Below are positions 29,436 to 61,041 of a DNA stretch of 64,000 nt, piece after piece. The first letter of the stretch is position 1. Every line of letters starts with the position of its first letter. The translations under genes and the position numbers were made by a program. The stretch covers positions 1 through 64,000 of IMG/VR virus record IMGVR_UViG_3300033066_001528; one strand, written 5' to 3'. This DNA comes from a virus. Its lineage: Duplodnaviria; Caudoviricetes. The notes below the pieces were generated by a model, which saw only the letters and a program-made list of their open reading frames with translations, was not told the DNA's origin and ran no database searches.

Positions 29436-30713
29436 TTACACCTCTGGTTCGAATACCTGACGCCAAGCTTCATCGTAAAGAGCCTTGGATGCAGCATTTG
29501 CTTCATCCACTATTTGCTGCTCTTCGGGAGTGAGATCGGAATGGCCTTCCATTTTCTTCCTGGCTTCTATTTCCCGAACCTTTTCATACAAAAGGTGACC
29601 GGACTGTTTTGCAATCAGCATCGGTTTCAGGTTTACTTGGAGCTCACCAATATGACCATTAGGATAGGTTATATTGAACATGAGGTCTCGATAACCGAGA
29701 GCCGTTGGGTTAGAAAACCTGTTCTTGGGTTTCCGTGCGAACTTAACCCCCATCTTTCTCAACTGATGAATAACAACGGGGATCTCACCCAGGGTATCAA
29801 CGGCCACCGTAGCCCGAACTAGGTCTAATGCCGCCGACACATCAGCACCTTCGGCCTCAACTTTTTCAAGGAGCCTTTTCTTCTTCTTAAGGGGTCCAAT
29901 TTGAACAATCGGGCCCAATACAGAAAGGTCAGGTTTCTGACCCGGGTAAAAGACCTTTGCCCCCATACGACTATCCAGACCAGTACCACGATTCAGAAGG
30001 TCCAACTGAAGCTCGTTAGCTTCTAGTGCATCCCTGTAGAGATCGTCCAACGAGTTGGTTTGTTGACTCGTGGTGGACGGTAACGAAGTCTCTTCAGGAG
30101 TGAAAACAGAAGCAACAGCTTTTGGCACTGGCGGAACCGCGGGGCTGTCTTTATCCAATTTAACCCCAACGACCCTACCTATGCCTGGAAGCAGCACCTG
30201 GGACAATGGGGTGCCCACGGCCTCAAAAACCACCCCAAAAACAGTGGCTAGAGAGGCGGAAGAGTCATGAAACAGTTTGGGCAATAGATGCCCACGATCA
30301 ATCCTTTTCAACCAAGAAAACGCCGGAGTAATTGCCCCCACTACTTTTTTACCAAGCCCCTCGGCATTTTCACGACCAACCAGCCGGGGAAGAAAACGAA
30401 GAAGAGCGCGGACCCCGGCTTTCACAGGCTCATAAAAGCCACCAATCGGCGGAGGTGCCCCCAAAGACGTGGAGTGAAGCCTATTGTATAGGTCAATGAG
30501 ATTAAACACCTGAATAGGGGCCCCACGCAAGACCCGACGCATCCGCAAAATTAAAGCTGGAGGAATGGGGTCCCTAGTGTAAGAGGCATTGCTCTGCCAC
30601 TCCTCGAATGCCGGATCTTTATCCTCGAAAGAAACTTTGAGCAGGGGCAATAGATGGGCCCTAAGATCTGGGTTCTGGTGTGCTAACCGAATAACCTTTG
30701 AGCGAAGATTCAT
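29436..30713 (-). CDS. RelA/SpoT-like nucleotidyltransferase (small alarmone synthetase type) with N-terminal tag A
   Basis: K..R..EK, DLVRAT, GYRD, ELQV and H.LYE motifs; N-terminus MNLRSKVIRLAHQNPDLRAHLLPLLK. Confidence 0.8.
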   Translation of the reverse strand: MNLRSKVIRLAHQNPDLRAHLLPLLKVSFEDKDPAFEEWQSNASYTRDPIPPALILRMRRVLRGAPIQVFNLIDLYNRLHSTSLGAPPPIGGFYEPVKAGVRALLRFLPRLVGRENAEGLGKKVVGAITPAFSWLKRIDRGHLLPKLFHDSSASLATVFGVVFEAVGTPLSQVLLPGIGRVVGVKLDKDSPAVPPVPKAVASVFTPEETSLPSTTSQQTNSLDDLYRDALEANELQLDLLNRGTGLDSRMGAKVFYPGQKPDLSVLGPIVQIGPLKKKKRLLEKVEAEGADVSAALDLVRATVAVDTLGEIPVVIHQLRKMGVKFARKPKNRFSNPTALGYRDLMFNITYPNGHIGELQVNLKPMLIAKQSGHLLYEKVREIEARKKMEGHSDLTPEEQQIVDEANAASKALYDEAWRQVFEPEV

Positions 30714-30743
30714 GCAGTTGTGTTAAGATAACAGGCTTAACGA

Positions 30744-31061
30744 CTAATCAGCAAGCTCTCCCGGGATCCTCGCCCAATGATTATCCCTAGCATTTGCTAC
30801 TGTGGAGTTACCATCCAAAACCGTGTATGTCCCATCAAAGTTATCGCGAAGAGAAATTGGCTTGCGCCTTCCCCCCACACCACGATAAGCTTTCTCCATA
30901 TGTTCCCGTGCATGGGCAATTCCACTTTCACGAGCTCGGATAGTTACCAGTGAATCCAGAGGATAAAGCTTAGTGTATGGAGTTCGAATGAAGTACCTCC
31001 ACGGGTCTTCAGGAAGAAGGCTTTCCATGCTTCTGGCAAGAACACGCATTAACAAAGACAT
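30744..31061 (-). CDS. ParB/Srx-like domain protein
   Basis: KPISLRDNFDGTYTVLDGNST...A...W.RIP; likely start MSLLMRVLARS. Confidence 0.65.
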   Translation of the reverse strand: MSLLMRVLARSMESLLPEDPWRYFIRTPYTKLYPLDSLVTIRARESGIAHAREHMEKAYRGVGGRRKPISLRDNFDGTYTVLDGNSTVANARDNHWARIPGELAD

Positions 31062-31087
31062 AAGTATTCGTAAATATAAATGCGTAA

Positions 31088-32443
31088 TCAACCCGTGATG
31101 TTCTCATAGGCACCAGTCCGGCCCCGCTCCTCAAGCTCATCGGGTTCATTGGACTTGTTGGTTGCCAGGGGGAGAATGGCATCTGGAGTCACTGGCCAAG
31201 CGGGATCCCTTCGCGCATCATAGGTCTCCCTCAGCGGACTGTAGGTGTACCGAGTCTGTGGCCACGGAAGATTGGGGCTTGCAATTTCCTGATCAATAGG
31301 AACTTTGTACCGAATGTCATCCGAATCAATATATTGAATGTTGAAATGCTGCTGCATCACATTCCCCCGATTTGTTGGCCTCCTTACGGGACCTATTGAG
31401 TATCTGTCATTATTCTGTTTCACAATGAAGTCTCGTTGTGAAACAATAGGGGAAAATGACATCCACACCTCATACGAGTGCTCTTTTCGTCTACCCATTG
31501 AGGTTTGAGAGATCCTCTTTTCCGCATCGTCTGGAGCCACAATGATATCATAGGGACCTTCGTAACCCCCTACAAACCCGACACCAAAGCAATCCCGGCA
31601 TAAGTTACTAGGCTGCTTTCCGTACTCCCGAGACTTAGGGTCGACCTGAAGTGTGCAGAGGCAAGGAATACCGTTGGTTTTCATGGTGAAAAGTTTGACT
31701 CTTTCCCCACCCTGCTCAAGAATCCACCGATTTCTACGGATAGCCTCCCGCCAAATGTAATCTAATGCCTCAATCTGCATGTCCGAGGCCGGAGCTGTAT
31801 CTTGGAGCCTACTTTCGGATAGGTTGCCGGGCTGGGTTGGGTCAACCACTACCGTGGTTACACGGTAGTAGGATTTCTTATCAACCCCTGGCTGAACCAT
31901 ATTCCGGAGTGTGTAATAGGTAACCGTAACGACATCGTCAGGCCCCGAGGGCAAGGGTGCATTAGAGAACCTAATGTCTCTTGGATCAATCAATGCGTTT
32001 GACTCCAGCGTCACCTCTCCCGTGGGTCCAAATACAGACGCTACCCTAGCCGGGACCCCATTGACATACACCAGAACATCGGATGAAGCATTTGCAGATA
32101 CACCATTGGTTCTTGGTTTGAATATTGGATGGAGGGTTTTGAAAGTCCAACGTGCAAGATTGGGAGCGTCCCCCCTAGACTGCCATTCACCCCAAGGAAC
32201 CACCTCGGATGCAATCAAAACAACATCGGTGTAATCCCGAAAAAACCCCCCTCCAACAGGATAAGCATTGACGCGACGATAGGGTCCTCGATCCGAGCTA
32301 TCGGATCGATAGATATTTACACCCACTACCACCCGATCGGAATTAGAGCTCAACAGGGCCGGGTCGTCCCAGCGAAGGTCAAAGACTCCCTGGATGAAAG
32401 GCGAGACGACCATCAAATTTTGAGGGGGTTGAGGATACACCAT
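31088..32443 (-). CDS. Neck / head-closure protein with FN3-like N-terminus
   Basis: PPQNL..LRWD..VNIYRS; GGERVKLF..C.C..C..CFGVGFVGGY motif seen in large-phage neck proteins. Confidence 0.6.
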   Translation of the reverse strand: MVYPQPPQNLMVVSPFIQGVFDLRWDDPALLSSNSDRVVVGVNIYRSDSSDRGPYRRVNAYPVGGGFFRDYTDVVLIASEVVPWGEWQSRGDAPNLARWTFKTLHPIFKPRTNGVSANASSDVLVYVNGVPARVASVFGPTGEVTLESNALIDPRDIRFSNAPLPSGPDDVVTVTYYTLRNMVQPGVDKKSYYRVTTVVVDPTQPGNLSESRLQDTAPASDMQIEALDYIWREAIRRNRWILEQGGERVKLFTMKTNGIPCLCTLQVDPKSREYGKQPSNLCRDCFGVGFVGGYEGPYDIIVAPDDAEKRISQTSMGRRKEHSYEVWMSFSPIVSQRDFIVKQNNDRYSIGPVRRPTNRGNVMQQHFNIQYIDSDDIRYKVPIDQEIASPNLPWPQTRYTYSPLRETYDARRDPAWPVTPDAILPLATNKSNEPDELEERGRTGAYENITG

Positions 32444-32457
32444 AACCCTAAGTAGAA

Positions 32458-33075
32458 TCAGACTTCAACCGGAACGGTCAAGTCAAGAAGATCCATGACT
32501 TTATTCCGAAGTTCCGCTTCCCAAGCCCCGGATCCCGTGCGAAATACGGAAACGGCATCCACAAACAAAGATGCCCTACCCGCAGAAATACGGCTAGAAT
32601 CAGTGGTGCACTCCGAAGAAATAAGAATGGCTCTCGGCCCCCGCCCAATATCCAGAAGAAGGTTCAAGCCATTTGTGCTGTTGTCTAAGTTGATATCTAC
32701 TACAACAACGGCAGAACGAACCTTCCGCCAAACTGATTCGGCCAGGGAAAAGTTAGGTACCAAATGAGGAGTAGCCCCTAATGAACGTAGAGTCGAATGA
32801 AGATCAGGATCGGGATCGGTAGTTACAGCATGTAGGGGAACCCCTAGAACCGAAAGGGTAGATGCCAAAGCACATAAAGCTGGGGGCGAATCGTCAATGA
32901 TTACAACGGAGCGTGTCAAAGGGTTGTAATCCAACCAACGAGTTATGACATCGGTAAGAATTTGAGCCGAATGCTCGGCCTTACCTAAAATAGACCCCAT
33001 GCGATACATACACATCTGAAGTGTATGGTCCGGGTAAGCACCACCAAAAGCTACGCTGTCCATATTTTCAATCAT
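32458..33075 (-). CDS. Response-regulator receiver (REC)-like domain protein
   Basis: VVIIDDS...VVVVDINL...NGLNLL...AILISS; the conserved Lys is not evident. Confidence 0.65.
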   Translation of the reverse strand: MIENMDSVAFGGAYPDHTLQMCMYRMGSILGKAEHSAQILTDVITRWLDYNPLTRSVVIIDDSPPALCALASTLSVLGVPLHAVTTDPDPDLHSTLRSLGATPHLVPNFSLAESVWRKVRSAVVVVDINLDNSTNGLNLLLDIGRGPRAILISSECTTDSSRISAGRASLFVDAVSVFRTGSGAWEAELRNKVMDLLDLTVPVEV

Positions 33076-33371
33076 CGAACGATAATCCTCATGAGTAAAG
33101 CAATCAGTCCACTGAAAACAATGGACGAGATCCCACCGATTAATAACGCCTGAGACCTAAGGGTTTCCACGTCTCTCAGTCGCTTCTCCACGTCCAAAGA
33201 TTTCTCATTGAGAGTTTCTATCTTGGTGGCTAACCGGGCCAGGGTAGTTTCGGTGACCACGGTAGACTTCCGGTGTTCAGCCGAAAGCTCACCTAAAGCT
33301 TTATTCAGGCTGTCAATAGCACCTAGAATTGCCCTACGGTGCTCAAGGAATCCGTCACCACCATCACTCAT
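33072..33371 (-). CDS. Coiled-coil protein with C-terminal transmembrane helix (holin/XhlA-like)
   Basis: VEKRLRDVE followed by ALLIGGISSIVFSGLIALLM; ATGA overlap with the REC gene. Confidence 0.5.
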   Translation of the reverse strand: MSDGGDGFLEHRRAILGAIDSLNKALGELSAEHRKSTVVTETTLARLATKIETLNEKSLDVEKRLRDVETLRSQALLIGGISSIVFSGLIALLMRIIVR

Positions 33372-33639
33372 TGTACACCTTCCAGAACAACTCAAAAACT
33401 ATTGCGTCAAGTTGCTACAAGTAAAAAAAGATTAGGCAAACCAAACGAGACTAAATGCCCCGCACCATTCCACTAGTGAAATGCGAAACAAAATACGCAC
33501 CCAATAGCCAAAAGCAAAAAGCCACAGAAGGTGTCTTTTTGACACCCTAGACCATACCGATACATTTTTTGAGGTGGAAATAAAAAACTGGGAGGAACTG
33601 GAAAATGAGGTCCCCCCTAGGGTGGAGAGACGGGAAAAG

Positions 33640-33918
33640 TCAATCCCAATTAAACCGTTTCATCTCGACGGTTAGGTCATTAAAAGCAAATCGTAAAGCT
33701 AGCATCGCTCTATGCATCTTCCTGTCATCCGACATAGACGGTTCGTCTCTAACGGCACTCTGCAGTTTGTAAAACCCATCGCTCATCTTGTAATAAGCTT
33801 CCCGAATGTTCCCATTGGAGACGGGGATACCACCTTCTTTGAGAATAGGCAGGAGCTCTTTGCGGAGCTCAGGATTTTGGTGTGCTAATCTAATAAGACG
33901 GGAACGTAGAGATTCCAT
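33640..33918 (-). CDS. Small protein with N-terminal tag A
   Basis: MESLRSRLIRLAHQNPELRKELLPILKEGG. Confidence 0.75.
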   Translation of the reverse strand: MESLRSRLIRLAHQNPELRKELLPILKEGGIPVSNGNIREAYYKMSDGFYKLQSAVRDEPSMSDDRKMHRAMLALRFAFNDLTVEMKRFNWD

Positions 33919-33945
33919 ACCAACAACTTGGTATGGAATCTCTAC
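33906..33945 (-). promoter_or_regulatory. Perfect 18-bp inverted repeat covering the start codon of 33640..33918
   Basis: GTAGAGATTCCATACCAA-caac-TTGGTATGGAATCTCTAC. Confidence 0.75.
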
Positions 33946-33954
33946 CGTTAACCT

Positions 33955-36381: not shown

Positions 36382-36449
36382 TGATACCCCGTAATAGGTG
36401 GGATTGTTACCCTTCAGTTACGCCGGGAGAAGGAAAACTGACCCTCGAT

Positions 36450-37196
36450 TCAGATGGAGAATTTAGAGCCCCTAAGAACCCTACAATCGGGAAGAATACC
36501 TAGGGGATTGGGGGTACAATGCTTCTCCCACCACCCCCCCAATTTATTTGATACGACCCTAAAGAACTGACGGTCTTCAGAAAAAACCGAAGGTAGGGCT
36601 TCATGGGGTGTCCGGTCGGTCATCCAGTACAACTTGGAAGGCTCCATTTTCGAGGCTACCCCAAGGGGCTCTTTTTTCAAAGCCCCGAGTGCATCAACGT
36701 CCGTAGTGGTTGAGTCCCACACCCGGCAAGCGCCATTGGTGGAGGCCATGTAAACCCCGTCTTTACGATCGCAATGTCCATCCTGAAGAATACCTTGAAG
36801 GTACTCCAATCGTTGTCTCTGATCATAGGTCAGATCTTCCTTGCTGACCCGACGTAGTTCTGCGAGCTCCTCCAGAATGGATGTCCCACCACCAAACCTA
36901 CCAATGGATCCACCACCAAAGGTAAAACCACTCCCAAACGCGGACCAAAAAGATCCATTCCCGGCTTCGGTATGTACCCCACCCCTCCGCTGCGTTGTCC
37001 CCCCCTGAACCCGACCCTCTGTCACAGTAAGGTAAGCTACCTTTCCTGGGAGAATTGAATCACACATGGCAATGAGAGGAAGATACCCGTGTAGGTCTTC
37101 AGGAATTGTCGCCGGGTCGCCCATGATAAAAGGCATCATGTTGACGGACATAGCACGGGGTTTAGGGAACTGAACAAAATGAAGGGGTTGGTACAT
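36450..37196 (-). CDS. 2OG-Fe(II) oxygenase-like protein (untagged paralog)
   Basis: RRGGVHTE (HxE), TPHEAL (distal His), RQFFRV (2OG-binding Arg); paralog of 50989..51726. Confidence 0.55.
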   Translation of the reverse strand: MYQPLHFVQFPKPRAMSVNMMPFIMGDPATIPEDLHGYLPLIAMCDSILPGKVAYLTVTEGRVQGGTTQRRGGVHTEAGNGSFWSAFGSGFTFGGGSIGRFGGGTSILEELAELRRVSKEDLTYDQRQRLEYLQGILQDGHCDRKDGVYMASTNGACRVWDSTTTDVDALGALKKEPLGVASKMEPSKLYWMTDRTPHEALPSVFSEDRQFFRVVSNKLGGWWEKHCTPNPLGILPDCRVLRGSKFSI

Positions 37197-37233
37197 ACCC
37201 CACTTACGAAAAGAGTTGGACAGAAGGGGAGAG

Positions 37234-38709
37234 TTACTGGGAAAGTTTCATTTTTTCAGCATAAAAAGAAATCACCTTTTCTGCCGTTGAAACATCTGAA
37301 CCGAAAAAGTTCAACCAATGGTCTCGAACCACGGTCAAAAGAGGTACGTGCGTCATCTTGGACCGCTTAATGAATTCCCGAATATGAGCTTGAACTTCAA
37401 GGGGATCCAGAGCATAGTCATTGACGGGGTCTCTTCCTTGAGGCAAAGAGGCGTTTTGCTTTGAGAATTGCACGCTATGAGTCAGCTCGTGGGCCAACAG
37501 TGATGCCAATTCTGCCTGTCCTTCGGATCTCTTGGGGGACAACCACACTTCCACACTCAAATCCCCATAATAGTTGTTACCATCATGATTTTTCCCGGTA
37601 CCTGGATTGTCGGAGTGTCGTGTGAGGACTGATAGGTCCGTAGTTCCGGTTGATTCTAACGAATCCAGAATCCATTGGTCTAAGTTAATGTGAATATGAT
37701 TGTATCTATCCTCCAACACATGAGAACCATCCCTCCATTTCAAACTGGCATCCCGTTTCTGCAGCTTGTAAACGGAGTTACACACAAGACTAGACAGTGC
37801 ATTAGCCAGCTTTGCTACATTGACTTTGGTCCCAAAAGAAGCTGATTTGTCGGATTTGTCATTAGCAGCTTCTAAAACCTTCTGCATGTCTTCATCGGAC
37901 AAACCCTCTGCCATGACATCGTGGATTGCTTGATAGACGTAGGTCAGTAGGATCTCCTGAAGCTCATCTTCGGAAGGACCATCCTCCCCAAATACATACC
38001 GCATCGCTACTCGCTCGGACGCCGGGCGTGCCGAGGCTAGGTGATCGGAGAAATGATGGAGACCGTGAAGAAAAGAGTGACCCACTTCAAAGTGAGTGAA
38101 CCCCTTATCCAGAATATGACTGACAGCTTTGAAGGCCACATGCTTGGCGAAAGAATTACCCAGAGTTCCGGCCATGGCCCCCAAGCCGCCTGTGGCCGCC
38201 ATCACAGTGCCAGCCACAACATAAACTCCAACTGCATAGAGAGCTTTTTTATCCGGTCCCGTCAGCTTCTCCGGTGGCTTCTTAAACACTTTCTTTACAG
38301 CCGATACGCCGTGTTTTATCTCATGAAGCTCTTCTTTGGTAGCGTTCTTCAAAAGAGTGGGGATAGCTTTGGTACCCTTCTTCATTAGCTGAACGGCTTT
38401 ATCTGTAGCCTCTTTGCGGTGATCCTTATCCACTATCAACCGCTGGACTTCTTTTGGAGCTTGTTTGAGGGCTTCCTTCGCTGCTGGGGCTAGGCTCTTG
38501 GCCTTCTCCAAAAATGACGATAGCATCCCTTTGAAGCCTTTGCTTCCACCATCATCTTTCGTGGGTTCGTCTTTTTTGGGCTTGGCATGGGCATCGGCTT
38601 GATCCTTTGTATCAAAGGATTTCGCCTCTCCAGCGGGACTTTGGGATCTCCATTTACCCTCGGGGGTCTTCCAGACCTCTCCGGGGTGTCTTTCTCGCGC
38701 TATCTTCAT
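37234..38709 (-). CDS. Multidomain protein with hydrophobic segment, internal tag B and C-terminal zincin metallopeptidase
   Basis: LAHELTHSVQ...Y..DP.EVQA; internal ASERVAMRY. Confidence 0.65.
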   Translation of the reverse strand: MKIARERHPGEVWKTPEGKWRSQSPAGEAKSFDTKDQADAHAKPKKDEPTKDDGGSKGFKGMLSSFLEKAKSLAPAAKEALKQAPKEVQRLIVDKDHRKEATDKAVQLMKKGTKAIPTLLKNATKEELHEIKHGVSAVKKVFKKPPEKLTGPDKKALYAVGVYVVAGTVMAATGGLGAMAGTLGNSFAKHVAFKAVSHILDKGFTHFEVGHSFLHGLHHFSDHLASARPASERVAMRYVFGEDGPSEDELQEILLTYVYQAIHDVMAEGLSDEDMQKVLEAANDKSDKSASFGTKVNVAKLANALSSLVCNSVYKLQKRDASLKWRDGSHVLEDRYNHIHINLDQWILDSLESTGTTDLSVLTRHSDNPGTGKNHDGNNYYGDLSVEVWLSPKRSEGQAELASLLAHELTHSVQFSKQNASLPQGRDPVNDYALDPLEVQAHIREFIKRSKMTHVPLLTVVRDHWLNFFGSDVSTAEKVISFYAEKMKLSQ

Positions 38710-39191
38710 CAAACACACTCCGGAATAGGAAGAGAACCAGCTACACCCATCTCTATGTCCAAGAGGGCAAAAAAATCATCTATGTCCTCATTGTCAAAAA
38801 ACACACAGTCCAGAAGGAATAAATCATAAGGAAGATGCAAAACACCCATACGAGTGGAAACTTGAACGATGGAATGGAAAATATCTGTAACCTCACCCCA
38901 CCCTAGTGACAGAGACCAGAAAGGAATCCCTAAAGAGGCTCGGATTCTCCGGTGCTGGTTGGGGTGCAAGTATCTGTGTTTTTGTTGACGGTGAAAAACA
39001 CCACTATGACGAACCCGACGGTATCGGCTTTTTGCCCGTCGTTTAATCTGGTTCCGGTGTCTCAGGTAGTTCAACCTAGAGCGCCTGCGAGCCATACCAT
39101 GCTGGATGTGTTGTCTTGCATTTATTTGCAGTGCCATACGTCTTAGCCTGGATATAGGACCGGAAGGGTTGTGATTGCCGTACACCGACAC
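38709..39191 (-). CDS. Arg/His-rich basic protein
   Basis: RRRSRLNYLRHRNQIKRRAKSRYRRVRH; acidic C-terminus. Confidence 0.55.
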   Translation of the reverse strand: MSVYGNHNPSGPISRLRRMALQINARQHIQHGMARRRSRLNYLRHRNQIKRRAKSRYRRVRHSGVFHRQQKHRYLHPNQHRRIRASLGIPFWSLSLGWGEVTDIFHSIVQVSTRMGVLHLPYDLFLLDCVFFDNEDIDDFFALLDIEMGVAGSLPIPECV

Positions 39192-41525: not shown

Positions 41526-41953
41526 ATCAAAGACCTTTCTCTGGTTTTACCACCCGAGGTGCAATCCAATCTCTCAAACACAAGGGGCCTATCCGTCACG
41601 TTCCACCCGTTCCCCACGAAGTAGTCTCGGATCTCAGACTCTGTAGCGGAGTCAGGAACCCCACCTTTGAATGCAGTTTTCGGATAATGGACCCACCTAT
41701 CACCTTCGCGGACAAAGGACACCGTGATAAGGGGCACATGCTTTATCACGAAAGCAGTCATGTCGCGGAACGCAAGGAAAGACCAATTATCACGAAGAGC
41801 CAGCTCCAAAGCTTCCACGGAAGTGGTGATACCCCGGGTGTTGGGAATAGAAATCTTCCCCCGGGCCGTTTGAACGAACCAGGACGGTGCATAATCAAAC
41901 TCAGGGGTAAGCTCCATTACAAGAGAACCAACGGCGGGTGCTGTATTCATCAC
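41522..41953 (-). CDS. Hypothetical protein
   Basis: Start and stop overlap both neighbours. Confidence 0.55.
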   Translation of the reverse strand: MMNTAPAVGSLVMELTPEFDYAPSWFVQTARGKISIPNTRGITTSVEALELALRDNWSFLAFRDMTAFVIKHVPLITVSFVREGDRWVHYPKTAFKGGVPDSATESEIRDYFVGNGWNVTDRPLVFERLDCTSGGKTRERSLM

Positions 41954-43269
41954 GTCACCTTACGACGCTGAATGTTAGAGTAGCACACAGGAACCGCAAG
42001 ATTGATTTTGTCCGTGGAACGAGCCCCAAAAGAAGCAATACCTACCTTGGACCCAAGCATCGCACTCACCTTATCTACCACGGAATACGGATCCAGGAAA
42101 TCACCCGAAGCGATCATTGTTTCGATCTCAGGACGAGCCGTTCGGAGCAAAGCGGTATTGGAATCCTGATAAAGCATATCGTCTGCCGGAGTGGGAGACG
42201 CAACTAGACCGGGAAAATCCGGCCTATATGCATCAACATACTTCCAGGTATTTTTCACCGCATCTAGATGGGATAGTGCAATAGAATCAACCCCACCAAT
42301 AGCCTCCAGTGAGTACCGGAAGAGAACTGCATCAAAATGACCCTGACGAAACGGACCCTGCCAACCGGCCGGGCTGTTATGGTATTCGGGATTATTCAAC
42401 GAAGCCTCTGTCGGAAACGGACCCTCTCCGTGACGAGTCATGTATGTCCGAAGACAACCAATGACGTGCGTATTCCCCGAAAAGTCAACTTCATTTAGAA
42501 GTCGCATGGCATTTCTTGGTGTTGTGTCAGACCAAGTGGTATGAGGGTGAAACCCATGCCACTTATCCAGCAGAACCCCCTGTGCCCCCTCGAAAATAAG
42601 AGGCTTTCCAGAAGCCACCAGATTTTTCATATAGGAAGTTTCATCAACAGTGTGGAGATTCCGAAGAAAACCAGCCATCCTGTCTTTGTAAGCTTCGGGG
42701 TCGAACCGCACGGACTCAAACCCCATCTCCACGGCAAAAGCATTGGCAAGGTCCATCTGCAAACGGAGTTTACGGGACAATGTATCCGGTGTATGAAGAT
42801 CCACCACACGGATCGTGGCTTCAGGATTGGTGTAGGACATGGAGACGGACTCCCCAAAACCCATACCACAAGTACCATGACGATCTTCGCCGCGAGCCAG
42901 TTCGCGAGTTCGATTCATTGCTTGGTGGAGAGGGGTGATAACCAGGGCCCCCATCGAAACGTCCAAAAGAGAGAAAGGATCACGAACCCCCTTGGAGGAA
43001 AGGACTTCAGACTCTCGAATCATGGCTGTAGGGTGAATAGCCATGTATCGACTGAGGAAAGTTCGGCAACCATGAAAAGTTGCCGAACCCCACTGGGCAA
43101 AAGTGTGATGCCGACCATCACCAGAAATGACGTTGTGCCCAGCCTGGGCACCACCGTTGTGACGAATGACAGTAGACCCCGGGTTGACGGAGGCAAGGAA
43201 GTCAACCGTCCCCCCCTTACCCTCATCACCAAACGCCAGACCCGTAACGATGTATGCTGTTTGGTTCAT
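41950..43269 (-). CDS. Divergent adenylosuccinate synthetase (PurA-like) family protein
   Basis: FGDEGKG, GGAQAGH, FEGAQG, HPHTT and TRHGEGP present; aspartate-binding loop and TKLD motif altered. Confidence 0.88.
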   Translation of the reverse strand: MNQTAYIVTGLAFGDEGKGGTVDFLASVNPGSTVIRHNGGAQAGHNVISGDGRHHTFAQWGSATFHGCRTFLSRYMAIHPTAMIRESEVLSSKGVRDPFSLLDVSMGALVITPLHQAMNRTRELARGEDRHGTCGMGFGESVSMSYTNPEATIRVVDLHTPDTLSRKLRLQMDLANAFAVEMGFESVRFDPEAYKDRMAGFLRNLHTVDETSYMKNLVASGKPLIFEGAQGVLLDKWHGFHPHTTWSDTTPRNAMRLLNEVDFSGNTHVIGCLRTYMTRHGEGPFPTEASLNNPEYHNSPAGWQGPFRQGHFDAVLFRYSLEAIGGVDSIALSHLDAVKNTWKYVDAYRPDFPGLVASPTPADDMLYQDSNTALLRTARPEIETMIASGDFLDPYSVVDKVSAMLGSKVGIASFGARSTDKINLAVPVCYSNIQRRKVT

Positions 43270-50013: not shown

Positions 50014-50415
50014 TCAGGGGTATGAATTAGCGTTCTCAGACGGCATCAAATTCACAAAGTATCGGTGTGAGGCCACCGACCGACGTTCTGCTTCTTTCTT
50101 AAGGTCATCCAAGGCCACCCCCAGAAGCTGGTCCAATACCATAGCGTCCCCAAGAAGTCTGGCCCTAACGGTTTTTTCTGGTACTCCAGTAGCAAAACTA
50201 ATGCGACGCACGGACCCCTCAAGTGATCGGGTGAGGAGGCCACGGTAGGAATCCAGCCCCTTCTCCCACTGGCCCACGGAACGATAAAAAGGTTCTGCCG
50301 GGTTCATTCGTCCAGTATGAGCGGCTAGGATGGGGAGAAGATGCTTTCTTGTTTCCGGCTTATCATGGGCCAGACGTACAAGCTTTGAGTAAAGGCCCGG
50401 CATAGGGTTAGTCAC
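50014..50415 (-). CDS. Hypothetical protein with tag A
   Basis: LYSKLVRLAHDKPETRKHLLPIL. Confidence 0.7.
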   Translation of the reverse strand: MTNPMPGLYSKLVRLAHDKPETRKHLLPILAAHTGRMNPAEPFYRSVGQWEKGLDSYRGLLTRSLEGSVRRISFATGVPEKTVRARLLGDAMVLDQLLGVALDDLKKEAERRSVASHRYFVNLMPSENANSYP

Positions 50416-50956
50416 CTATCCCAAAAGAGGAATCTTCCCAAATCCAGACGTTCGGCCCCCGAACACGCCACCCGGAACCCCTATAGCTGGTAGATCCAGG
50501 AACCCCACCCCCAGTAATCTGGAACAACTTTGGCATGACCAGAGCAATCGCCTCGGCAAAATTCGGGTCAACCTCGGACTTAACGACGTACCCACTGTTA
50601 TCAGACCAAGCTTCCTGTGTAGACCACATACCCATTTGTGCAAGGGCACCTTCTTGGAAGGTTTTAGAAGCTAAGTTTAGCCGTACCAAGCGAACGAATT
50701 CCTTTAAGGTACGGTACATACCACGAACACCATCCTTCATGTAGTCCGGAACGATGTTCGGATTCACCTGATCATTTTTCGCAGTAACAACTATCTCCCC
50801 ATTTGTGTATGTGAAAGTTAAGAGGAGGGTAGCCCGATTGATTCCGTTCCCAATCTGCATGGGAACCGCAGCTTCCTTAAGTATTGGTAGAAGATGCGGT
50901 CTGAGGGAAGGATTTTGATGGGCTAGGCGGATAACTTTGGATCTAAGGGTCGTCAT
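50408..50956 (-). CDS. Hypothetical protein with tag A
   Basis: MTTLRSKVIRLAHQNPSLRPHLLPILKEAA. Confidence 0.75.
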   Translation of the reverse strand: MTTLRSKVIRLAHQNPSLRPHLLPILKEAAVPMQIGNGINRATLLLTFTYTNGEIVVTAKNDQVNPNIVPDYMKDGVRGMYRTLKEFVRLVRLNLASKTFQEGALAQMGMWSTQEAWSDNSGYVVKSEVDPNFAEAIALVMPKLFQITGGGVPGSTSYRGSGWRVRGPNVWIWEDSSFGIGD

Positions 50957-50988
50957 ACCATAAAAGAAGGAAACAACAAATTAACGAG

Positions 50989-51726
50989 TTAGAATTTTGA
51001 TCCTTCAATGATTGGGCAGTCCGGTAACACACCAAAAGGATTGGGGGTGTTGTGTTGCTTGAACCACCCACCAATCTTATTGGAAACCAACCTGAAAAAT
51101 TGACGGCGAGTGTCCTTAGACACTCGCAGGGCCTCATGAGGGGTTCGGTCGGTCATCCAATACAAGTAGTTGGGTCTCATCTTCTCACTCAACCCCGAAG
51201 GGGAAGTCATTAATGCTCCGTGCTTGTCTACTTTACCAGCAGAGCAGTCCCATATTCTACAAGATCCATCCGTTGAAGCCATGTAGATACCATCCCGAAT
51301 CGCACAACCCTCTTTTTGACCTTTACCCCAACCCCCGCCCCATCCTGAATGCAGAGAACCCTTCCCCCAGCCCCCACCCCATCCACCCTGCTTTGTGGAA
51401 TCGTAACTTTCCGTATGTATACCGCCACGTCTCTGAGAGTCTCCGGATTTAACTAAGCTCTCATGAACGGTAAGGTAAGCCACCTTACCTCTCTCAATCG
51501 AGGAACACTTATCAATCATCGGAAGGTAACCATGCAAATAACCAGGAATTGTTGCTGGGTCACCCATGATGAAAGGCATCATATTGATAGACCTACCTTG
51601 AAATTCGGGAAACTGAACTGATCCAATCCGTCGGTAATGTTGCGTTTCCAATAAAGGAAGAAGATCCTTTCGCAAGGAAGGATTTTGATGGGCCAGACGA
51701 ATAAGTTTGGATCTAAGGCTTTTCAT
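50989..51726 (-). CDS. 2OG-Fe(II) oxygenase-like protein with tag A
   Basis: MKSLRSKLIRLAHQNPSLRKDLLPLL followed by a domain paralogous to 36450..37196. Confidence 0.65.
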   Translation of the reverse strand: MKSLRSKLIRLAHQNPSLRKDLLPLLETQHYRRIGSVQFPEFQGRSINMMPFIMGDPATIPGYLHGYLPMIDKCSSIERGKVAYLTVHESLVKSGDSQRRGGIHTESYDSTKQGGWGGGWGKGSLHSGWGGGWGKGQKEGCAIRDGIYMASTDGSCRIWDCSAGKVDKHGALMTSPSGLSEKMRPNYLYWMTDRTPHEALRVSKDTRRQFFRLVSNKIGGWFKQHNTPNPFGVLPDCPIIEGSKF

Positions 51727-51750
51727 ACCTGGAAAGCCACTAGAAAAAGT

Positions 51751-53387: not shown

Positions 53388-53417
53388 ACGACCGAAAGAA
53401 GATAGGAAAGGAATTGC

Positions 53418-53738
53418 TCAGATATCACGGGAAGGTGGGACACATGGAGTGTATCCAACCAGGGCATAACAGTCACCATCCACGTCACAGAAGCAATGGT
53501 CCTCGGAAGGCCAGCAGTGACGAATTCTTTCCGACTGAACACCAACGGGTTCACCACGGCCGTTAAGCCGTACATCCTCCGGGCAAACAGAGGGAGCGTC
53601 TGCGTCCACCTCTGGTAGATCAACGGATCCATCGGACCCCAAAGATGGAATCTCCAAACCAATGTCGGTTGGGGTTGCAGGAGAAGAACAATCCTTGCAA
53701 CCAAAAATGAAAGCAAGTATCAGAGCATATCGTTTCAT
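53418..53738 (-). CDS. Putative Cys-rich lipoprotein
   Basis: MKRYALILAFIFGC lipobox-like signal; Cys-rich C-terminus. Confidence 0.55.
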   Translation of the reverse strand: MKRYALILAFIFGCKDCSSPATPTDIGLEIPSLGSDGSVDLPEVDADAPSVCPEDVRLNGRGEPVGVQSERIRHCWPSEDHCFCDVDGDCYALVGYTPCVPPSRDI

Positions 53739-53764
53739 GGTTCCCATGAGAAACCATAGGGTGA

Positions 53765-54007
53765 CTAACGGAGTTGAATCATGGATCTGGGGACTGCTAC
53801 TGCGGTCCAGCCCCAAAATTTTGAGTCCAACGGAGGACCCAAAGGAATATCCAGAGTGACGATGTAAGTACGCATAAGGTCGTCCATCGATAGACCCGAA
53901 ATGGAACCGAAAACTGATATTGGATCCCCCAACCCTGGATTCAGAGTGACGACAACTTTGGTGTCAATCTGTAAAGGATTTGGATCGAAGTGAGTTGGTT
54001 GAATCAT
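53765..54007 (-). CDS. Small hypothetical protein (SH3-like)
   Basis: 80 aa, with CGTAA motif 8 nt upstream. Confidence 0.55.
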   Translation of the reverse strand: MIQPTHFDPNPLQIDTKVVVTLNPGLGDPISVFGSISGLSMDDLMRTYIVTLDIPLGPPLDSKFWGWTAVAVPRSMIQLR

Positions 54008-54028
54008 GGAAGTGATTACGCTCGTACC

Positions 54029-56107: not shown

Positions 56108-56123
56108 GGGTCATTCATCCCAG

Positions 56124-56140
56124 GGTAAATAGTCATTATC
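56124..56140. promoter_or_regulatory. Single GGTAA-N7-TTATC palindromic site between divergent genes
   Basis: Lies in the 44-nt gap between ATG 56107 (-) and ATG 56152 (+). Confidence 0.55.
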
Positions 56141-56151
56141 GCCGAAGGGTG

Positions 56152-56943
56152 ATGCCTATGAGTCAAGCGCAACGGGTTGCGTCGAGGGTTATGATGGCCG
56201 GGAGTGGAAGTGCGACTCCCCTAACCAGTCAGTATTGGAACAAGCTCCCAAAAGGTGATCGCTTTGAGTGGCTGGCAGGGTTCTTTGGGGATAAACCTGG
56301 AGGGAAAACTTTTGCCGCGAGCCATGAAACTACCAGCACCATTCAAACCATCCTGAATGAGGCTGGAGAATATTGGTCATGGAGGGCTGCGGAAGAGTTC
56401 GCGGATGCTGTAGACGAAGAGGCCAAAGAGTGGAAAGAACGAGGATACAAATTCGAGCAGAGAGAAACGGCAGACGAACTGAACCTAGAGACGGTGCTGG
56501 ACAAGTACATTGGGGACAGTCGGATGATGAGCTCAAAGGAGATTGTTTTCCTTCGAGGGGTGATTGAAGCCAGTCACGTAGCACCTGGGTTGAGGTTCCT
56601 GGAGAGGATCCAGGCGGATAACCCTGGATGGCAGGAAGGTGAGCATGTCAAATTCTCCATCGCTTCGTTCTCAGCCGTGGAGTTCTCCAAAGGCAAAAAT
56701 GCTGGGAACATTGGGTGGAAAAGCACGGATCAATGCATCGTCCGGGTCAACAACCCTTCCAGGGGACTCACCATCTCCTACGCTGCCAGGGATATGATGA
56801 CCATGCAGTTTGATGCTGCTTCCGAACGAGAGACCCTCCTGGGAGGGAATTACGTGGTGGAGTCGGTTGAGAAAATCGTGGAACCACACACAACCCCAGC
56901 CTATGGGTACCGCATTCCTATGTACGTTCTCCATGAGTCCTGA
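56152..56943 (+). CDS. ADP-ribosyltransferase-like protein (R-S-E class) with tag B
   Basis: FLRG, ASFS and SERETLL; N-terminal AQRVASRVMMAG. Confidence 0.65.
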   Translation: MPMSQAQRVASRVMMAGSGSATPLTSQYWNKLPKGDRFEWLAGFFGDKPGGKTFAASHETTSTIQTILNEAGEYWSWRAAEEFADAVDEEAKEWKERGYKFEQRETADELNLETVLDKYIGDSRMMSSKEIVFLRGVIEASHVAPGLRFLERIQADNPGWQEGEHVKFSIASFSAVEFSKGKNAGNIGWKSTDQCIVRVNNPSRGLTISYAARDMMTMQFDAASERETLLGGNYVVESVEKIVEPHTTPAYGYRIPMYVLHES

Positions 56944-56974
56944 GCGGTAGAAGGTCACTATCCCCGGCTAGTGG

Positions 56975-58270
56975 ATGGATCCCCGCAGAGTAGCACACAG
57001 ATTCCTAATCGCTGACGCCTTGCTCTCCGAGGAGTGGGTAGAGACACAGCTTAGAACGGTGAGAGAGCTCACCACCAAACCCGTAGATGGAAGCGACTTC
57101 GAGGCCATCATCCAGGGGATTGAGAACCTCAATGCCTACATGAGAGGAATTCAGGAGCACATTGAGCGTGCTTCCAACTTTCACCCCTACTTTGCCAAGG
57201 AGGTTGATTGGGACAACAACTACACCCTGGATAGGATGGTCAAACCCCTCGGATACGTCGCTAGGGACTACAAAGAACTTGTCAAGCAACTGAAGGATCG
57301 ACGAAAGGCCCCTCTGTGGGATTTCACAGAACTTGTCATTCGGGCTCAGTACAAGAAGGACGTCAAATCAATCGGTGATGCTCCCCGGTTCTCCCCCAGC
57401 CTATGGCAATACAAAACAGACGCGGTACTCCAGGATGTGGAGTCCAAAATACCGGATGAAATTGACCAGACAACACTTAACCCACAGCTTGTGTCCTGGC
57501 TGAAGGCGAAGAAAGTCAAGGATAGGATTTTCCGTGTTGGTATGGACAGGAGTCGGTACACGGTAGACCCCTTGGGGACCCTAACGATGTGGTTCAATGA
57601 CCTGAGGGAGAAGCCACGAACGGATGAGCTCTATCAGGACAAAGGGGCATACAGGGAGGTGAGCATAGGTCGGGCCACCCTCGTTCTGTTGGACCCCGAA
57701 AACGAGGCGGTGTTTGACGCGGCATCGGTGAAAGCAATTGCAGGGGTGTACCGCAACCTACAGCAAGCAAGGTTGGGTGCGGTTTGGTACGGTCCCCTCT
57801 TCTACGTCTCCAAGGAGAACCCCAAGCTCACTGGGAAACTGCTCGAACTAGCGAAAAACATGGGGTACGACATCCAGAGCTATGGCGGTAGGTACAACCA
57901 CAAGAATGACCTCGTTGTGACTTCTGGGTACCCGGAGAACGCAGCCTCCACCCTGACCCACGAGCTTGGCCACCGGTACTGGTTCAAATTCATGAAACAG
58001 GAGCAGCGGGAGAGGTTCCAGAACATGGTCCGCACACGCCCTGCCGTGATCGAAGAGGGCAATGAGGCCAAAAAGAAGTACCTGGAGGAGATGGACTACC
58101 TACCGGGTGAGATCAACGATGATGGGGATCTGAAACCAGTCCTACCCGTGTCTGAATACGGAGGGACCAACATCGCCGAAGCTTTTGCCGAGGTGTTCTC
58201 CCACTATGTCCAGGGGAGAGAGATGACCCGAGACCAGAGAGTGAGCTTCAAATGGATCATTGGCCACTGA
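56975..58270 (+). CDS. Zincin metallopeptidase (lethal-factor/MPTase-like) with tag B
   Basis: THELGHRYW...VSEYGGTNIAEAFAE; N-terminal MDPRRVAHRFLIA. Confidence 0.75.
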   Translation: MDPRRVAHRFLIADALLSEEWVETQLRTVRELTTKPVDGSDFEAIIQGIENLNAYMRGIQEHIERASNFHPYFAKEVDWDNNYTLDRMVKPLGYVARDYKELVKQLKDRRKAPLWDFTELVIRAQYKKDVKSIGDAPRFSPSLWQYKTDAVLQDVESKIPDEIDQTTLNPQLVSWLKAKKVKDRIFRVGMDRSRYTVDPLGTLTMWFNDLREKPRTDELYQDKGAYREVSIGRATLVLLDPENEAVFDAASVKAIAGVYRNLQQARLGAVWYGPLFYVSKENPKLTGKLLELAKNMGYDIQSYGGRYNHKNDLVVTSGYPENAASTLTHELGHRYWFKFMKQEQRERFQNMVRTRPAVIEEGNEAKKKYLEEMDYLPGEINDDGDLKPVLPVSEYGGTNIAEAFAEVFSHYVQGREMTRDQRVSFKWIIGH

Positions 58271-58361
58271 TACACGGTTTCAGTAACTTGATTGCTGAGT
58301 GACCCCACACCCGGGGCAAAAATGCTACCCACCAGAGGGGTAACCTGGGCAAGGAGCCAGC

Positions 58362-58724
58362 ATGATTGGTGGAGACGATATTGTGATTGCGTTGCGTCCT
58401 GGGTGGGGTGTTGACGTGATGCGGGAATTCCTTGTGGTGATGAAAGAAACTTGGTCCGAAGCAATAGCGGAGGAAATCAATGAATCCATCGCGGTCCCCA
58501 TTGGGGAGTTGACAGAGGACTTTCGCGAAGGTTTCATCTATGAAAACCACGATGCCTTGATTGATTGGGCGAAATCCGGAGCCAGTGTGCAAAATGCAAA
58601 CAGTATGGTTCATGTCATCATGAAACGGCGCAGCATGACTCTAGTCGTGGGGAACAAGTCATCCCCCCTGGGTCAAAAACTGTGTGCGTTCGCCAGGGTG
58701 TGGAGTGGTCCTATACACCCGTGA
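58362..58724 (+). CDS. Hypothetical protein
   Basis: AAGGAG Shine-Dalgarno before ATG. Confidence 0.55.
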   Translation: MIGGDDIVIALRPGWGVDVMREFLVVMKETWSEAIAEEINESIAVPIGELTEDFREGFIYENHDALIDWAKSGASVQNANSMVHVIMKRRSMTLVVGNKSSPLGQKLCAFARVWSGPIHP

Positions 58725-58728
58725 GGGT

Positions 58729-59460
58729 ATGCCTTCCACAGTTACCGAAGCCTACTATCAATCTCTCCTCGAACAATCCATTCAAAACGATTTCCCTCAG
58801 GCCCTGACCCGGCTCCAATGGGGGAAACGAACCATCCTAGATCCCGACTTCCCCATGTCCGTTGACGACCTGTGGCTGTACCTGCGGGACCGGGAAGTGC
58901 CCCTGGAAGACATCCAGGCACTTCAACGGGTGAAGCCACCCAGAGCCCCACGCCCACCCAAAGGAATGTCACTGGTGGATTTTGGTGAGGCCATAGGGAA
59001 ACCTGTAGCCGTAGGGGTGAGTGACGCGGAGCTAGAATTGGTAGCCACACATCTCAAAATCATGGCAAAAGCCATCAACAGTCTGCCCGCCATCAGCCGT
59101 GGCCTATACCACTCGGAAGTGAAAAAAGTGCTTCTGGGTCGTCAAAGGAAAACCGAGGATGCATCATGGGAACCTGGGGGCGTTCTGCGATTGAACATGA
59201 GGCCCGGCACCACACCTGACCTGGGTATCTATCGGTCCAGGGTCATCCATGAACTCGGACACGCCTTGGAAGAGAAACTAGGGTTGGTGGTGACCCCGTG
59301 GGCCACCATTTATGGCAACCCACCTTTCATCTCCGACTATGCCAGAATGAATGCAACAGAGGATTTCGCGGAGACGTTCAGGGCGTGGGAGACGGAGAGA
59401 GGGGTGTTGCGTTCTGTTGCACCTGGGAAGTACGCGGACATGAAAAGTCGCGTGGGCTAG
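58729..59460 (+). CDS. Zincin metallopeptidase (lethal-factor/MPTase-like)
   Basis: IHELGHALE...ISDYARMNATEDFAETF. Confidence 0.75.
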   Translation: MPSTVTEAYYQSLLEQSIQNDFPQALTRLQWGKRTILDPDFPMSVDDLWLYLRDREVPLEDIQALQRVKPPRAPRPPKGMSLVDFGEAIGKPVAVGVSDAELELVATHLKIMAKAINSLPAISRGLYHSEVKKVLLGRQRKTEDASWEPGGVLRLNMRPGTTPDLGIYRSRVIHELGHALEEKLGLVVTPWATIYGNPPFISDYARMNATEDFAETFRAWETERGVLRSVAPGKYADMKSRVG

Positions 59461-59654
59461 AACCTACCGACATGGCACGGGTCGCAGTGTTCCAATGCAG
59501 CCAGAACGAACTCCCCGTGCTGTAGAAGCTCCCCCTCAAACCACAGGCATTTTGCCATGTCACCTGCATACACGGGTCCAACGGTCATCGGAGGCCCACC
59601 TGACTTCAAACGTACCACATCCCCAGACTTGATCTCAGTATTCTCGTCGCTCAT
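59457..59654 (-). CDS. YodC/DUF2158-family small protein
   Basis: GDVVRLKSGGPPMTV...CLWF. Confidence 0.85.
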   Translation of the reverse strand: MSDENTEIKSGDVVRLKSGGPPMTVGPVYAGDMAKCLWFEGELLQHGEFVLAALEHCDPCHVGRF

Positions 59655-59685
59655 GGGAGAACATTACCCCGCGACAGGGAGCGCC

Positions 59686-60357
59686 TCAAGAAAGAAGGCA
59701 GAAAGAGTGCATGTCATGATCCGAGAGGCTGTCATCCACCATCTCATGGGCCTGGAGAGCTCTGGGCTCTTCCATCGGGCAATCGGGATGCTGAAAGTTA
59801 GTCGTTGGGACCGACCTTGGGTTTCCCACGAGTACTTTGGTAACCATCCCAATGCCAGCCATGGGCCTTGTGTAGTGAACCCCATCTTCCTCGGCGTGAA
59901 CTTTCTTCCCTAGAACATTCGCCGCCCTCACGTCGTAACCCCGTGTAAGGAACCAAAACTCTTCCGCTGTTTCCGTGTCCCATCGAAAGGCACTGGACAT
60001 ACCCAAGACTTCCCCAAATAATTCGCTGAGAACATCAAAGACCGCTTGTCGAGCCATCTCCCTAACGGCTGGAAAGTCCCCCCGGTCGAAACTCACGTCG
60101 CCCACATAGGGAACCCAGTCCGGATCCAGACCAACCCCCCCCGCCATCAAAAACTCATAATTTGGGATAGTGTTTTCTAAAATGCTCTCAAATACCTTCC
60201 CGTCCACTTTTTGGGAGTTGTACATCTTCCGATAAGCGGCCTTCATCTCCCGAAGATATTTGAGCATGTGGTCGCGCACAGCCCTGGAGACTTCAGGCTC
60301 TAGGGCGGCATCAACAGATGCCATGTAGGAACGGGCCACGCGCTGAGATGGAGTCAT
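59686..60357 (-). CDS. Hypothetical protein with tag B
   Basis: Likely start MTPSQRVARSYMAS. Confidence 0.6.
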   Translation of the reverse strand: MTPSQRVARSYMASVDAALEPEVSRAVRDHMLKYLREMKAAYRKMYNSQKVDGKVFESILENTIPNYEFLMAGGVGLDPDWVPYVGDVSFDRGDFPAVREMARQAVFDVLSELFGEVLGMSSAFRWDTETAEEFWFLTRGYDVRAANVLGKKVHAEEDGVHYTRPMAGIGMVTKVLVGNPRSVPTTNFQHPDCPMEEPRALQAHEMVDDSLSDHDMHSFCLLS

Positions 60358-60365
60358 GTCACACC

Positions 60366-60387
60366 GGTAAGTTATCAATAACTTACC
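60366..60387. promoter_or_regulatory. Perfect inverted repeat GGTAAGTTAT-ca-ATAACTTACC between divergent tagged genes
   Basis: 10-bp arms in a 42-nt divergent gap. Confidence 0.6.
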
Positions 60388-60399
60388 AGAGAGAGAACC

Positions 60400-61041
60400 A
60401 TGTTCACCCCTACGAAAAATGCCCCGTTCCAACTGGCAACGGACACCATCATGTACAAACCTGGGAAGGGTAGTGGGAATGGTGACATGGATGATATCGC
60501 CAACACCCTCGGACCTAAGTCCAGGAAGGTTCTATTTTCGCGCGGGACCACCGTCACATGGAACGGCGTTCGATCTGGTGGCCTTCTCGTTGTCATCGTG
60601 AAGCTACCCCATGGCGGATCCATCGGGTGGTATGGGGTCAATGAAAAAGACCTAGAACCGCCTGTTCGGTCTCTACGATCGTCCATCATTCGTCTGGCTC
60701 ACGCCAACCCTAAACTCAGGGGCGACCTACTGCCGCTACTCAAAGAGGCCGCAGTGAGAAAAACCATGACCAGGGAACAGATCGAGGGCATGGGAGCCGC
60801 CGTGATCAACAAGGCTTTGGACACCCTCGACAAAGAGCAGAGCAAACTCAACGGCGCCCTCATCGAGGCGGGGTTCGGGCACGTTAGGCTCCAGGAGATC
60901 ATGAGGATGGACCACCCTGTGGCCCAGCAGTATGCCGTGGTGTCGGGTCAGATCGCCCTCCTCCACGAGGAGATCGAGCGCCGCTATGGTCCCGGTGCCC
61001 CCTCCAGACTCCCACGTGGGTTTGGCCCGATCAAGCGCTGA
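60400..61041 (+). CDS. Two-domain protein with internal tag A
   Basis: SLRSSIIRLAHANPKLRGDLLPLLKEAA at 60670-60753. Confidence 0.7.
   Translation: MFTPTKNAPFQLATDTIMYKPGKGSGNGDMDDIANTLGPKSRKVLFSRGTTVTWNGVRSGGLLVVIVKLPHGGSIGWYGVNEKDLEPPVRSLRSSIIRLAHANPKLRGDLLPLLKEAAVRKTMTREQIEGMGAAVINKALDTLDKEQSKLNGALIEAGFGHVRLQEIMRMDHPVAQQYAVVSGQIALLHEEIERRYGPGAPSRLPRGFGPIKR

Follow-up and report, generated by a model that had tools for sequence, protein, structure and literature searches.

Two kinds of described system bear on the question taken up here. The internal proteins of phage T4 are diverse and have in common only a capsid-targeting sequence (CTS), which loads them into the scaffolding core and is later cut off (PMC3012670, PMC7411985). 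In the giant phages SPN3US and phiKZ, several head and ejection proteins carry propeptides that are thought to target them to the prohead, and the protease removes these at a short motif, A-x-E in SPN3US (PMC7411985). Here we describe a peptide tag of ~26 residues that recurs on otherwise unrelated proteins of an uncultivated tailed phage, IMG/VR virus record IMGVR_UViG_3300033066_001528. The record is a linear contig of 123,912 bp (CheckV completeness 29%), and the window referred to below is its first 64 kb, the stretch of DNA that was analyzed. A preliminary description of the window had reported the motif at six places and read it as a modular address label that loads proteins into the virion. 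We find the tag to be a real, undescribed portable module, for which the statistics are unambiguous, and weigh what it may do.

Each of the six intervals in the preliminary description encodes the motif on translation. Five of them lie on the minus strand, which that description had not given, and translation of the plus strand shows stops there for that reason. The whole-genome scan it had proposed was made with a hidden Markov model (HMM) of the six window copies, run over the six-frame translation of the whole contig. This gives 13 clear matches (E-values of 1e-10 to 5e-18), seven of them new, plus one decayed copy at E 0.008; the best score after that is E 0.6. Five window copies stand at the N-termini of minus-strand open reading frames (ORFs) and set in 2–4 residues past the Met: 30636..30713 (ORF 29436-30713, 425 residues; E 1e-16), 33835..33918 (ORF 33640-33918, 92 residues; E 5e-18), 50326..50403 (ORF 50014-50403; E 9e-17), 50870..50956 (ORF 50408-50956, 182 residues; E 7e-18) and 51640..51726 (ORF 50989-51726, 245 residues, phrog_8970 family). 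The third of these, LYSKLVRLAHDKPETRKHLLPIL, is the most diverged in the window, and its ORF runs over 50014-50403 with an ATG start or 50014-50415 with a GTG start. The sixth copy, at 60670..60753 on the plus strand, occupies residues 92–118 of ORF 60400-61041 (213 residues; E 3e-16), just as claimed, and is the sole internal one on the contig.

The seven further copies lie beyond the window, near 65038, 65623, 71177, 71745, 86170, 87915 and 122499. All are on the minus strand, as is almost every gene of the contig, and a Met immediately precedes the tag in each. The tag directly follows the start Met in 12 of the 13 contig copies and in ten of the 11 copies of LR745208.1, an uncultured 485-kb phage whose capsid protein is 89% identical to that of the contig. 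Tagged genes make up ~9% of the genes on the contig. The decayed copy, RSSLRSNLIRLENIQPSLRIGLANS, at 88025-88099 (minus strand), has no start codon and lies just upstream of 87289-87915, a gene with an intact tag; it is apparently a relic of tagged-gene turnover.

The 13 copies align gap-free, with the consensus M-x-[ST]-L-R-S-K-L-I-R-L-A-H-x-N-P-x-L-R-x-H-L-L-P-L-L-K. The invariant columns (L11, A12, R19, L23, P24 and L26) are mostly hydrophobic, with one Arg, and every copy is basic (net charge +2.5 to +5, isoelectric point [pI] 10–12). An AlphaFold2 model of the 50989-51726 protein places tag helices at residues 4–14 and 16–27, and the tag is predicted to form two amphipathic helices of 11–13 residues with a break at N-P. 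Basic charge combined with hydrophobic invariant residues would suit an amphipathic hairpin that binds protein. Where two copies have the same residue, the codons are identical in 31% of pairs, which indicates that conservation acts on the protein, that the copies are old, and that they are not a DNA repeat. A search for a shared promoter or upstream motif by 7-mer enrichment found none: apart from scattered GTTAA, the sole recurrence was a loose GGT ahead of the ATG. GGT stands immediately 5' of the ATG, without a clear Shine-Dalgarno sequence, in 7 of 12 N-terminally tagged genes (e.g., 33919-33921, 50957-50959 and 51727-51729), and GTTAA(C) occurs within 80 nt upstream in about half of these genes.

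The proteins that carry the tag have little else in common. All-against-all BLAST of the 13 carrier bodies gives a best E-value of 0.74, in agreement with the earlier claim that the attached domains share nothing else. ORF 29436-30713 had been labeled RelA/SpoT-like, and the label is sound for its C-terminal domain: residues 190–421 are 53% identical to P0167, a tagged metagenome protein with PF04607, the direct Pfam match being weak (E 0.027). The label oxygenase-like for ORF 50989-51726 (phrog_8970, E 5e-34) is borne out in part. Its AlphaFold2 model, made with 96 homologues, has a predicted local distance difference test score (pLDDT) of 87.8 and a fold like that of Fe(II)/2-oxoglutarate dioxygenases, a likeness that is weak (Foldseek E 6e-4, template-modeling score ~0.3). 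In the family alignment H104, H197 and R208 are invariant and E198 nearly so. Other tagged relatives have GNAT, WGR or DUF2958 domains. Look-alikes of the protein P0005 in the ESM Atlas, with scores of at most 0.83, were uninformative.

The phrog_8970 family gives the clearest view of how the tag is joined to a protein. All 120 of the nearest homologues of the 50989-51726 protein are untagged and start M-Y-x-x-x-x-x-V-x-F-P. The tagged protein has the tag plus T-Q-H where the homologues have that Met, so that the fusion falls exactly at residue 2. The contig itself encodes an untagged paralogue at 36450-37196 (minus strand; 43% identity, E 2e-59), whose residue 2 aligns with residue 31 of the tagged protein. 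In public data the tagged gene is called from an internal Met, without the tag (P0239, 197 residues), and automatic annotation may therefore undercount tagged proteins.

Comparison with LR745208.1 extends this picture across genomes. Homologues of 84 of the 138 contig genes are found there, in largely the same order, though most tagged proteins of the two phages align through the tag alone. Another relative (L097) has five tagged genes that interrupt runs of core genes whose counterparts on this contig are direct neighbors. The tag has thus been added to complete, unrelated proteins and is kept while its carriers turn over between genomes.

A profile of the 13 copies was searched against 1.84 billion representative proteins, with 3,896 matches at E ≤ 1e-3 and 610 at E ≤ 1e-10. 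A word-indexed search gave 979 matches, nearly all of them to metagenome proteins without a name, whose contigs reach 530 kb. For nucleotide data we used a strict degenerate DNA pattern back-translated from I-R-L-A-[HY]-x-N-P-x-L-R-x-x-L-L-P. In 596 Gb of species-representative prokaryote genomes it occurs on two contigs, both from metagenome-assembled genomes (MAGs); the one that comes from a Terriglobia MAG has, besides the tag, a homologue of an LR745208.1 gene and is therefore a fragment of a related phage. The same pattern finds 60 stretches in IMG/VR, on about 40 contigs, many longer than 100 kb. Among 15 tag-bearing IMG/VR contigs, each with 2–15 tags, 11 encode a capsid protein 77%–91% identical to that of this contig, and the sole record rated complete is 437 kb long.

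The tag is essentially confined to phages, and its carriers mostly belong to one clade of huge phages of ~437–485 kb when complete. The capsid protein of the contig is 47% identical to that of the cultured Tunturiibacter phage Tunturi_5, 37% to that of Bacillus phage G and 28% to those of Mycobacterium cluster C phages. A search that finds 11 tags in LR745208.1 finds none in Tunturi_5 or phage G, despite their common capsid and protease types, and INPHARED holds no cultivated phage that bears the tag. The tag has no match in Pfam (E ≤ 0.1), PHROGs or NCBIfam, PDB sequences give only noise (E 9), and the motif string was not found in the literature searched.

The position of the tag was examined in 477 tags from the 230 best-scoring relatives, a set skewed to multi-copy proteins because bit scores are additive. 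The C-terminal half is complete in 430 of these tags, of which 167 lie at the N-terminus, 210 inside the protein and 53 at the C-terminus, and many of the proteins have 2–7 tags with K/E/D-rich linkers between them. The tag is thus a position-independent module. C-terminal tags stop 1–4 residues past L-L-P-L-L-K, so the functional unit ends there. These positions, and the several tags often found per protein, fit a docking module better than a strict N-terminal leader of the T4 kind. What stands of the modular label in the preliminary description is the modularity, the selection at the protein level and the unrelated carriers with fast turnover, some of them enzymes.

The residues around the tag are also constrained. 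Counting after the Pro of L-L-P in the 430 tags, position +3 is K in 62%, +4 is E in 31%, +5 is A in 52% and +6 is A or G in 47%, so the K-E/V-[AGS] noted earlier behind the motif is statistically valid. A similar signature precedes internal tags, with K at -4 in 41%, A at -2 in 40% and S at -1 in 44%. The exact motif K-x-A-[SAG] stands at -4 to -1 in 28% of internal tags and at +3 to +6 in 19% of tags; outside tags it occurs at 0.25% of positions, and the flanks are therefore enriched ~75- to 110-fold. About one tag in three is followed by L-K-E. A processing site would fit the flanking K-x-A-[SAG].

Within a genome the tags seem to change together. Tags from one genome have an identity of 0.67, as against 0.59 for tags from different genomes (permutation p ≤ 2e-4), and for 48 of 86 tags the nearest neighbor belongs to the same genome. 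The most distant clade member examined (G011, capsid 77% identical) has the variant L-K-x-Q-L-I-R-L-G-N-A-N-P-x-L-R-x-x-L-K-P-V-I-A in four of the six copies read in the fetched stretch. If all copies had to fit one phage-encoded receptor, they would be expected to change in concert like this, and it is probable, in our judgment, that every copy of the tag docks to one common partner encoded by the phage.

What that partner might be is suggested by the head genes of the contig, whose order was read from the annotations of Tunturi_5 and phage G, BLAST and PHROGs. The prohead protease (P0238) is encoded at 80507-81955 (or as far as 81970; minus strand; 38% identical to Tunturi_5 gp331; phrog_18299, E 6e-11). 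Next to it, at 79071-80627 (minus strand), is the gene for a very acidic, low-complexity protein of 478 residues counted from M41 (pI 4.3, charge -60) with four DEDEALLAAMLDE-like acidic amphipathic repeats; its position and composition point to a scaffold. A decoration-like protein follows at 78199-78873 (minus strand), in the position of phage G gp26, which is annotated as capsid decoration, and the major capsid protein is encoded at 77274-78155 (minus strand; phrog_2522, E 3e-48). The protease has a C-terminal extension of ~215 residues that is also present in LR745208.1 and absent from the 287-residue protease of Tunturi_5; the extension could be a targeting or scaffold domain. Plus-strand ORFs overlap the protease gene. 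Most of the larger proteins scanned have no PHROGs or Pfam match, and portal and terminase were not located.

We propose that the common partner is the procapsid core. The best candidate receptor would be the acidic scaffold-like protein encoded between the protease and capsid genes, the long extension of the protease being an alternative. Tagged proteins would become part of the head and enter the next cell together with the DNA, as T4 internal proteins do, and the prohead protease would trim the tag at K-x-A-[SAG] on both flanks. Its occurrence in internal and C-terminal positions would mark the tag as a binding module rather than a leader; such a module would not need a free N-terminus, and proteins with several tags and K/E-rich linkers would be multivalent components of the core. 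By analogy with CTS cargo, we put the loading of tagged proteins onto the procapsid core, and their delivery with the DNA, at somewhat short of an even chance. The fuller version is more tentative again: that the clade (~440–485 kb) has a position-independent, genome-tuned two-helix "zip code" of 26 residues, by which interchangeable enzymes and multivalent charged proteins, dozens of them, are brought onto the acidic scaffolding core of the procapsid, and which the prohead protease trims at K-x-A-[SAG].

Gene order gives this proposal some support. The genes for the protease homologue and the scaffold-like protein of charge -60 adjoin the capsid gene, and the tag is basic. A tagged gene of 134 residues in LR745208.1 separates the scaffold-like gene from the genes for decoration and capsid. 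Tagged genes are found within the head operon in W01, G011, G003 and G010, and in G003, G010 and G011 tags lie within 3 kb of the capsid gene. The contig studied here has two tagged genes 6 kb downstream of its capsid gene, in a neighborhood of genes that LR745208.1 also has. The scaffold-like protein, moreover, has a motif of 14 residues exactly in common with a multi-tag metagenome protein.

Several observations weigh against loading into the head. The preliminary description had named a tag match in head proteins as a result that would support it, but none came up: the contig's capsid, decoration-like, protease and scaffold-like proteins are all without an HMM match. Most of the tagged genes stand outside the head module, dispersed among genes of metabolism and replication. 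An acidic protein occupies the scaffold position in the tagless Tunturi_5 as well, which indicates that acidity alone is no mark of a receptor. The exact K-x-A-[SAG] occurs in only 19%–28% of flanks, and helix capping plus a preferred linker would explain it equally well; with Glu at +4 in only 31%, a Glu-specific cut of the T4 kind is not general. The genome-specific signature of the tag is modest and could also come from intragenomic exchange. A single-sequence AlphaFold2 model of a natural four-tag protein is of low confidence (pLDDT 52), and is informative on secondary structure only and silent on packing. Finally, a multi-tag protein with a 14-residue motif of the scaffold-like protein adjoins a NUDIX/kinase module and not a head operon. 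This motif, AGEVPEAFKKQWDK, is an exact match between the scaffold-like protein and the tagged metagenome proteins P0021 and P0011, and short motifs seem, from the sequences, to be shuffled among these charged proteins. P0011 and P0021 were considered as scaffold orthologues on account of the motif and rejected, their contigs showing the NUDIX/kinase neighbors.

The scatter of tagged genes among metabolic and replication functions is what one would predict if the tag were an intracellular docking or oligomerization module instead. Tags would then bind each other or a hub, multi-tag proteins would act as scaffolds, and single-tag enzymes would be clients of a phage factory or condensate. The 2–7 tags per protein, their K/E/D-rich low-complexity linkers and their N-terminal, internal and C-terminal positions agree with such a role, as do short tandem arrays of tag-like units in some proteins (P0053 and P0055). 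Moreover, a helical hairpin of 26 residues is too small for lone folding and typically pairs with another. However, the four-tag model is of low confidence, and the tagged genes within head operons and the K-x-A-[SAG] flanks are left unexplained. A multivalent core within the capsid would look alike, and the architecture does not separate the two readings. Among the proteins of the contig and LR745208.1 we found no hub protein with tandem tags; only single tags align. We consider an intracellular hub rather unlikely, at about one chance in a few.

The basic charge of the tag could also be taken to mean that it is a helix-turn-helix that binds nucleic acid and tethers enzymes to phage or host DNA or RNA, with co-packaging as a possible by-product. 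A charge of +2.5 to +5 and a pI of 10–12 in all 13 copies, the two helices predicted by the model and several conserved Arg and Lys residues would all be in keeping with this. The invariant positions, however, are mostly hydrophobic (L, A, L, P and L) plus one Arg, as for a protein–protein interface, and no DNA-binding family is matched in Pfam, NCBIfam or PDB sequences. Nor is genome-specific co-variation, as in the variant of the most distant clade member, expected of non-specific DNA binding. We judge nucleic-acid binding to be improbable.

That same co-variation bears on a host partner. A tag that binds a host protein (RNA polymerase, a chaperone or a protease adaptor) or the membrane might gather phage proteins at one host site or set their stability, and N-terminal amphipathic basic helices are common as targeting or adaptor signals. 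The clade may have one host group, given the tag in the Terriglobia MAG fragment and a cultured relative that infects an acidobacterium. The tag varies in concert within genomes, however, and cultured relatives with the same capsid type, one of them on an acidobacterial host, are tagless. By sequence, the tag lacks a hydrophobic run of sufficient length to insert into a membrane, and twin-arginine and signal-peptide features are likewise absent. A host target is thus doubtful, marginally more so than nucleic-acid binding. A repeat at the DNA level (a recombination cassette or a shared regulatory leader, as the copies at gene starts and the public call P0239 beginning downstream of the tag might suggest) is refuted by the codon analysis, and with no upstream k-mer in common, in-frame tags inside long proteins and thousands of diverged copies conserved as protein only, it has virtually no chance of being correct.

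Other features of the contig emerged in the course of this work. A protein of 335 residues at 26535-27542 (minus strand), 70% identical to the product of an LR745208.1 gene, matches Pfam Volactin (PF25216) over its full length (E 3e-68). Volactin is an actin-like family described from haloarchaea. An adenylosuccinate-synthetase homologue at 41950-43269 (minus strand) matches phrog_1211 (E 4e-77), annotated as a PurZ-type "2-aminooxy adenylosuccinate synthetase", a match that makes one ask whether the genome is modified (2-aminoadenine). The sequence R-V-A-x-[RK]-[YF]-[LMV] is a second short motif, which recurs, N-terminally as well as internally, in some ten other proteins. Sites lie in 37234-38718, 56975-58270 and 59686-60432 in the window, and in 70136-70978, 81963-82484, 82499-85792 and 98873-99451 on the rest of the contig. 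A protein of 1,097 residues has a eukaryotic-type topoisomerase IB catalytic core at its N-terminus (PF01028, E 5e-24), and two other large genes have LAGLIDADG domains, one with an additional weak, below-threshold match to an intein splicing domain; the three genes lie at L004:8499-11792, L004:14120-17407 and L002:7938-11120, all on the minus strand.

Should the tag prove to be a label for packaging or docking, the cargo proteins of an entire clade of uncultivated huge phages can be listed by searching with a simple profile. Enzymes that resemble alarmone synthetases, oxygenases and acetyltransferases are already on that list, as candidates for host takeover or counter-defense. As such a label, the tag would also be a second natural portable capsid-loading tag besides the T4 CTS and the P22 scaffold domain, and one that tolerates any position in a protein. 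If the zip-code reading is true, sequence could directly reveal the full set of proteins that uncultivated phages inject. Even with a partner outside the capsid, a family definition would improve the annotation of thousands of "hypothetical" metagenome proteins.

How, then, does the tag compare with known systems? With the CTS of the T4 proteins IPI, IPII, IPIII and Alt, compared here by description, it has in common that it is a short label on unrelated, hypervariable accessory proteins, in a phage that also has a prohead protease and an acidic protein in the place of the scaffolding core. Like T4 cargo, the carriers are unrelated and diversify rapidly: their bodies show no similarity and are mostly not conserved in LR745208.1. 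The CTS, however, is ~10–20 residues long, strictly N-terminal and cut after L/I-x-E, whereas the tag has ~26 residues and two helices, can also be internal, C-terminal or multi-copy, and is followed by Glu in 31% of cases. The ejection propeptides of SPN3US and phiKZ likewise target several proteins to the prohead and are removed by the protease, but they are 111–130 residues long and have no single short motif in common. Those phages also differ in group and capsid lineage, the capsid here being of the phage G type (phrog_2522).

The MuF-fused polyvalent proteins invoked in the preliminary description offer no closer parallel, as Pfam scans of the six window carriers and ten multi-tag relatives find no MuF domain. 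LRV and HEAT-like repeats (PF01816 and PF25591) are superficially similar, with a unit of ~24–26 residues and the pattern R-x-A-x-x-N-P-x5-L-L, and in one relative (P0057) the tag is followed directly by canonical LRV repeats. An origin from such repeats was rejected: the hhalign probability is 0.4%, and the Pfam LRV models have no match on the contig even at E 10.

The P22 scaffolding protein has a small basic helix-loop-helix that docks electrostatically to the capsid interior and can be used as a portable encapsulation tag. It differs in being C-terminal, one per scaffold protein and not spread over many cargo proteins, and the tag profile has no match among PDB sequences. The encapsulation peptides of microcompartments and the cargo-loading peptides of encapsulins, whose shells have the HK97 fold, are short amphipathic helices or peptides at either terminus that bring unrelated enzymes into a shell by way of a poorly conserved linker. 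These are cellular systems with dedicated shells, unrelated sequences, usually one tag per cargo and no delivery to another cell. The tag cannot be filed under the T4 CTS family, LRV repeats or MuF polyvalent proteins. Its resemblance to the CTS, to microcompartment encapsulation peptides and to the P22 scaffold hairpin may lie in mode of action and not in descent.

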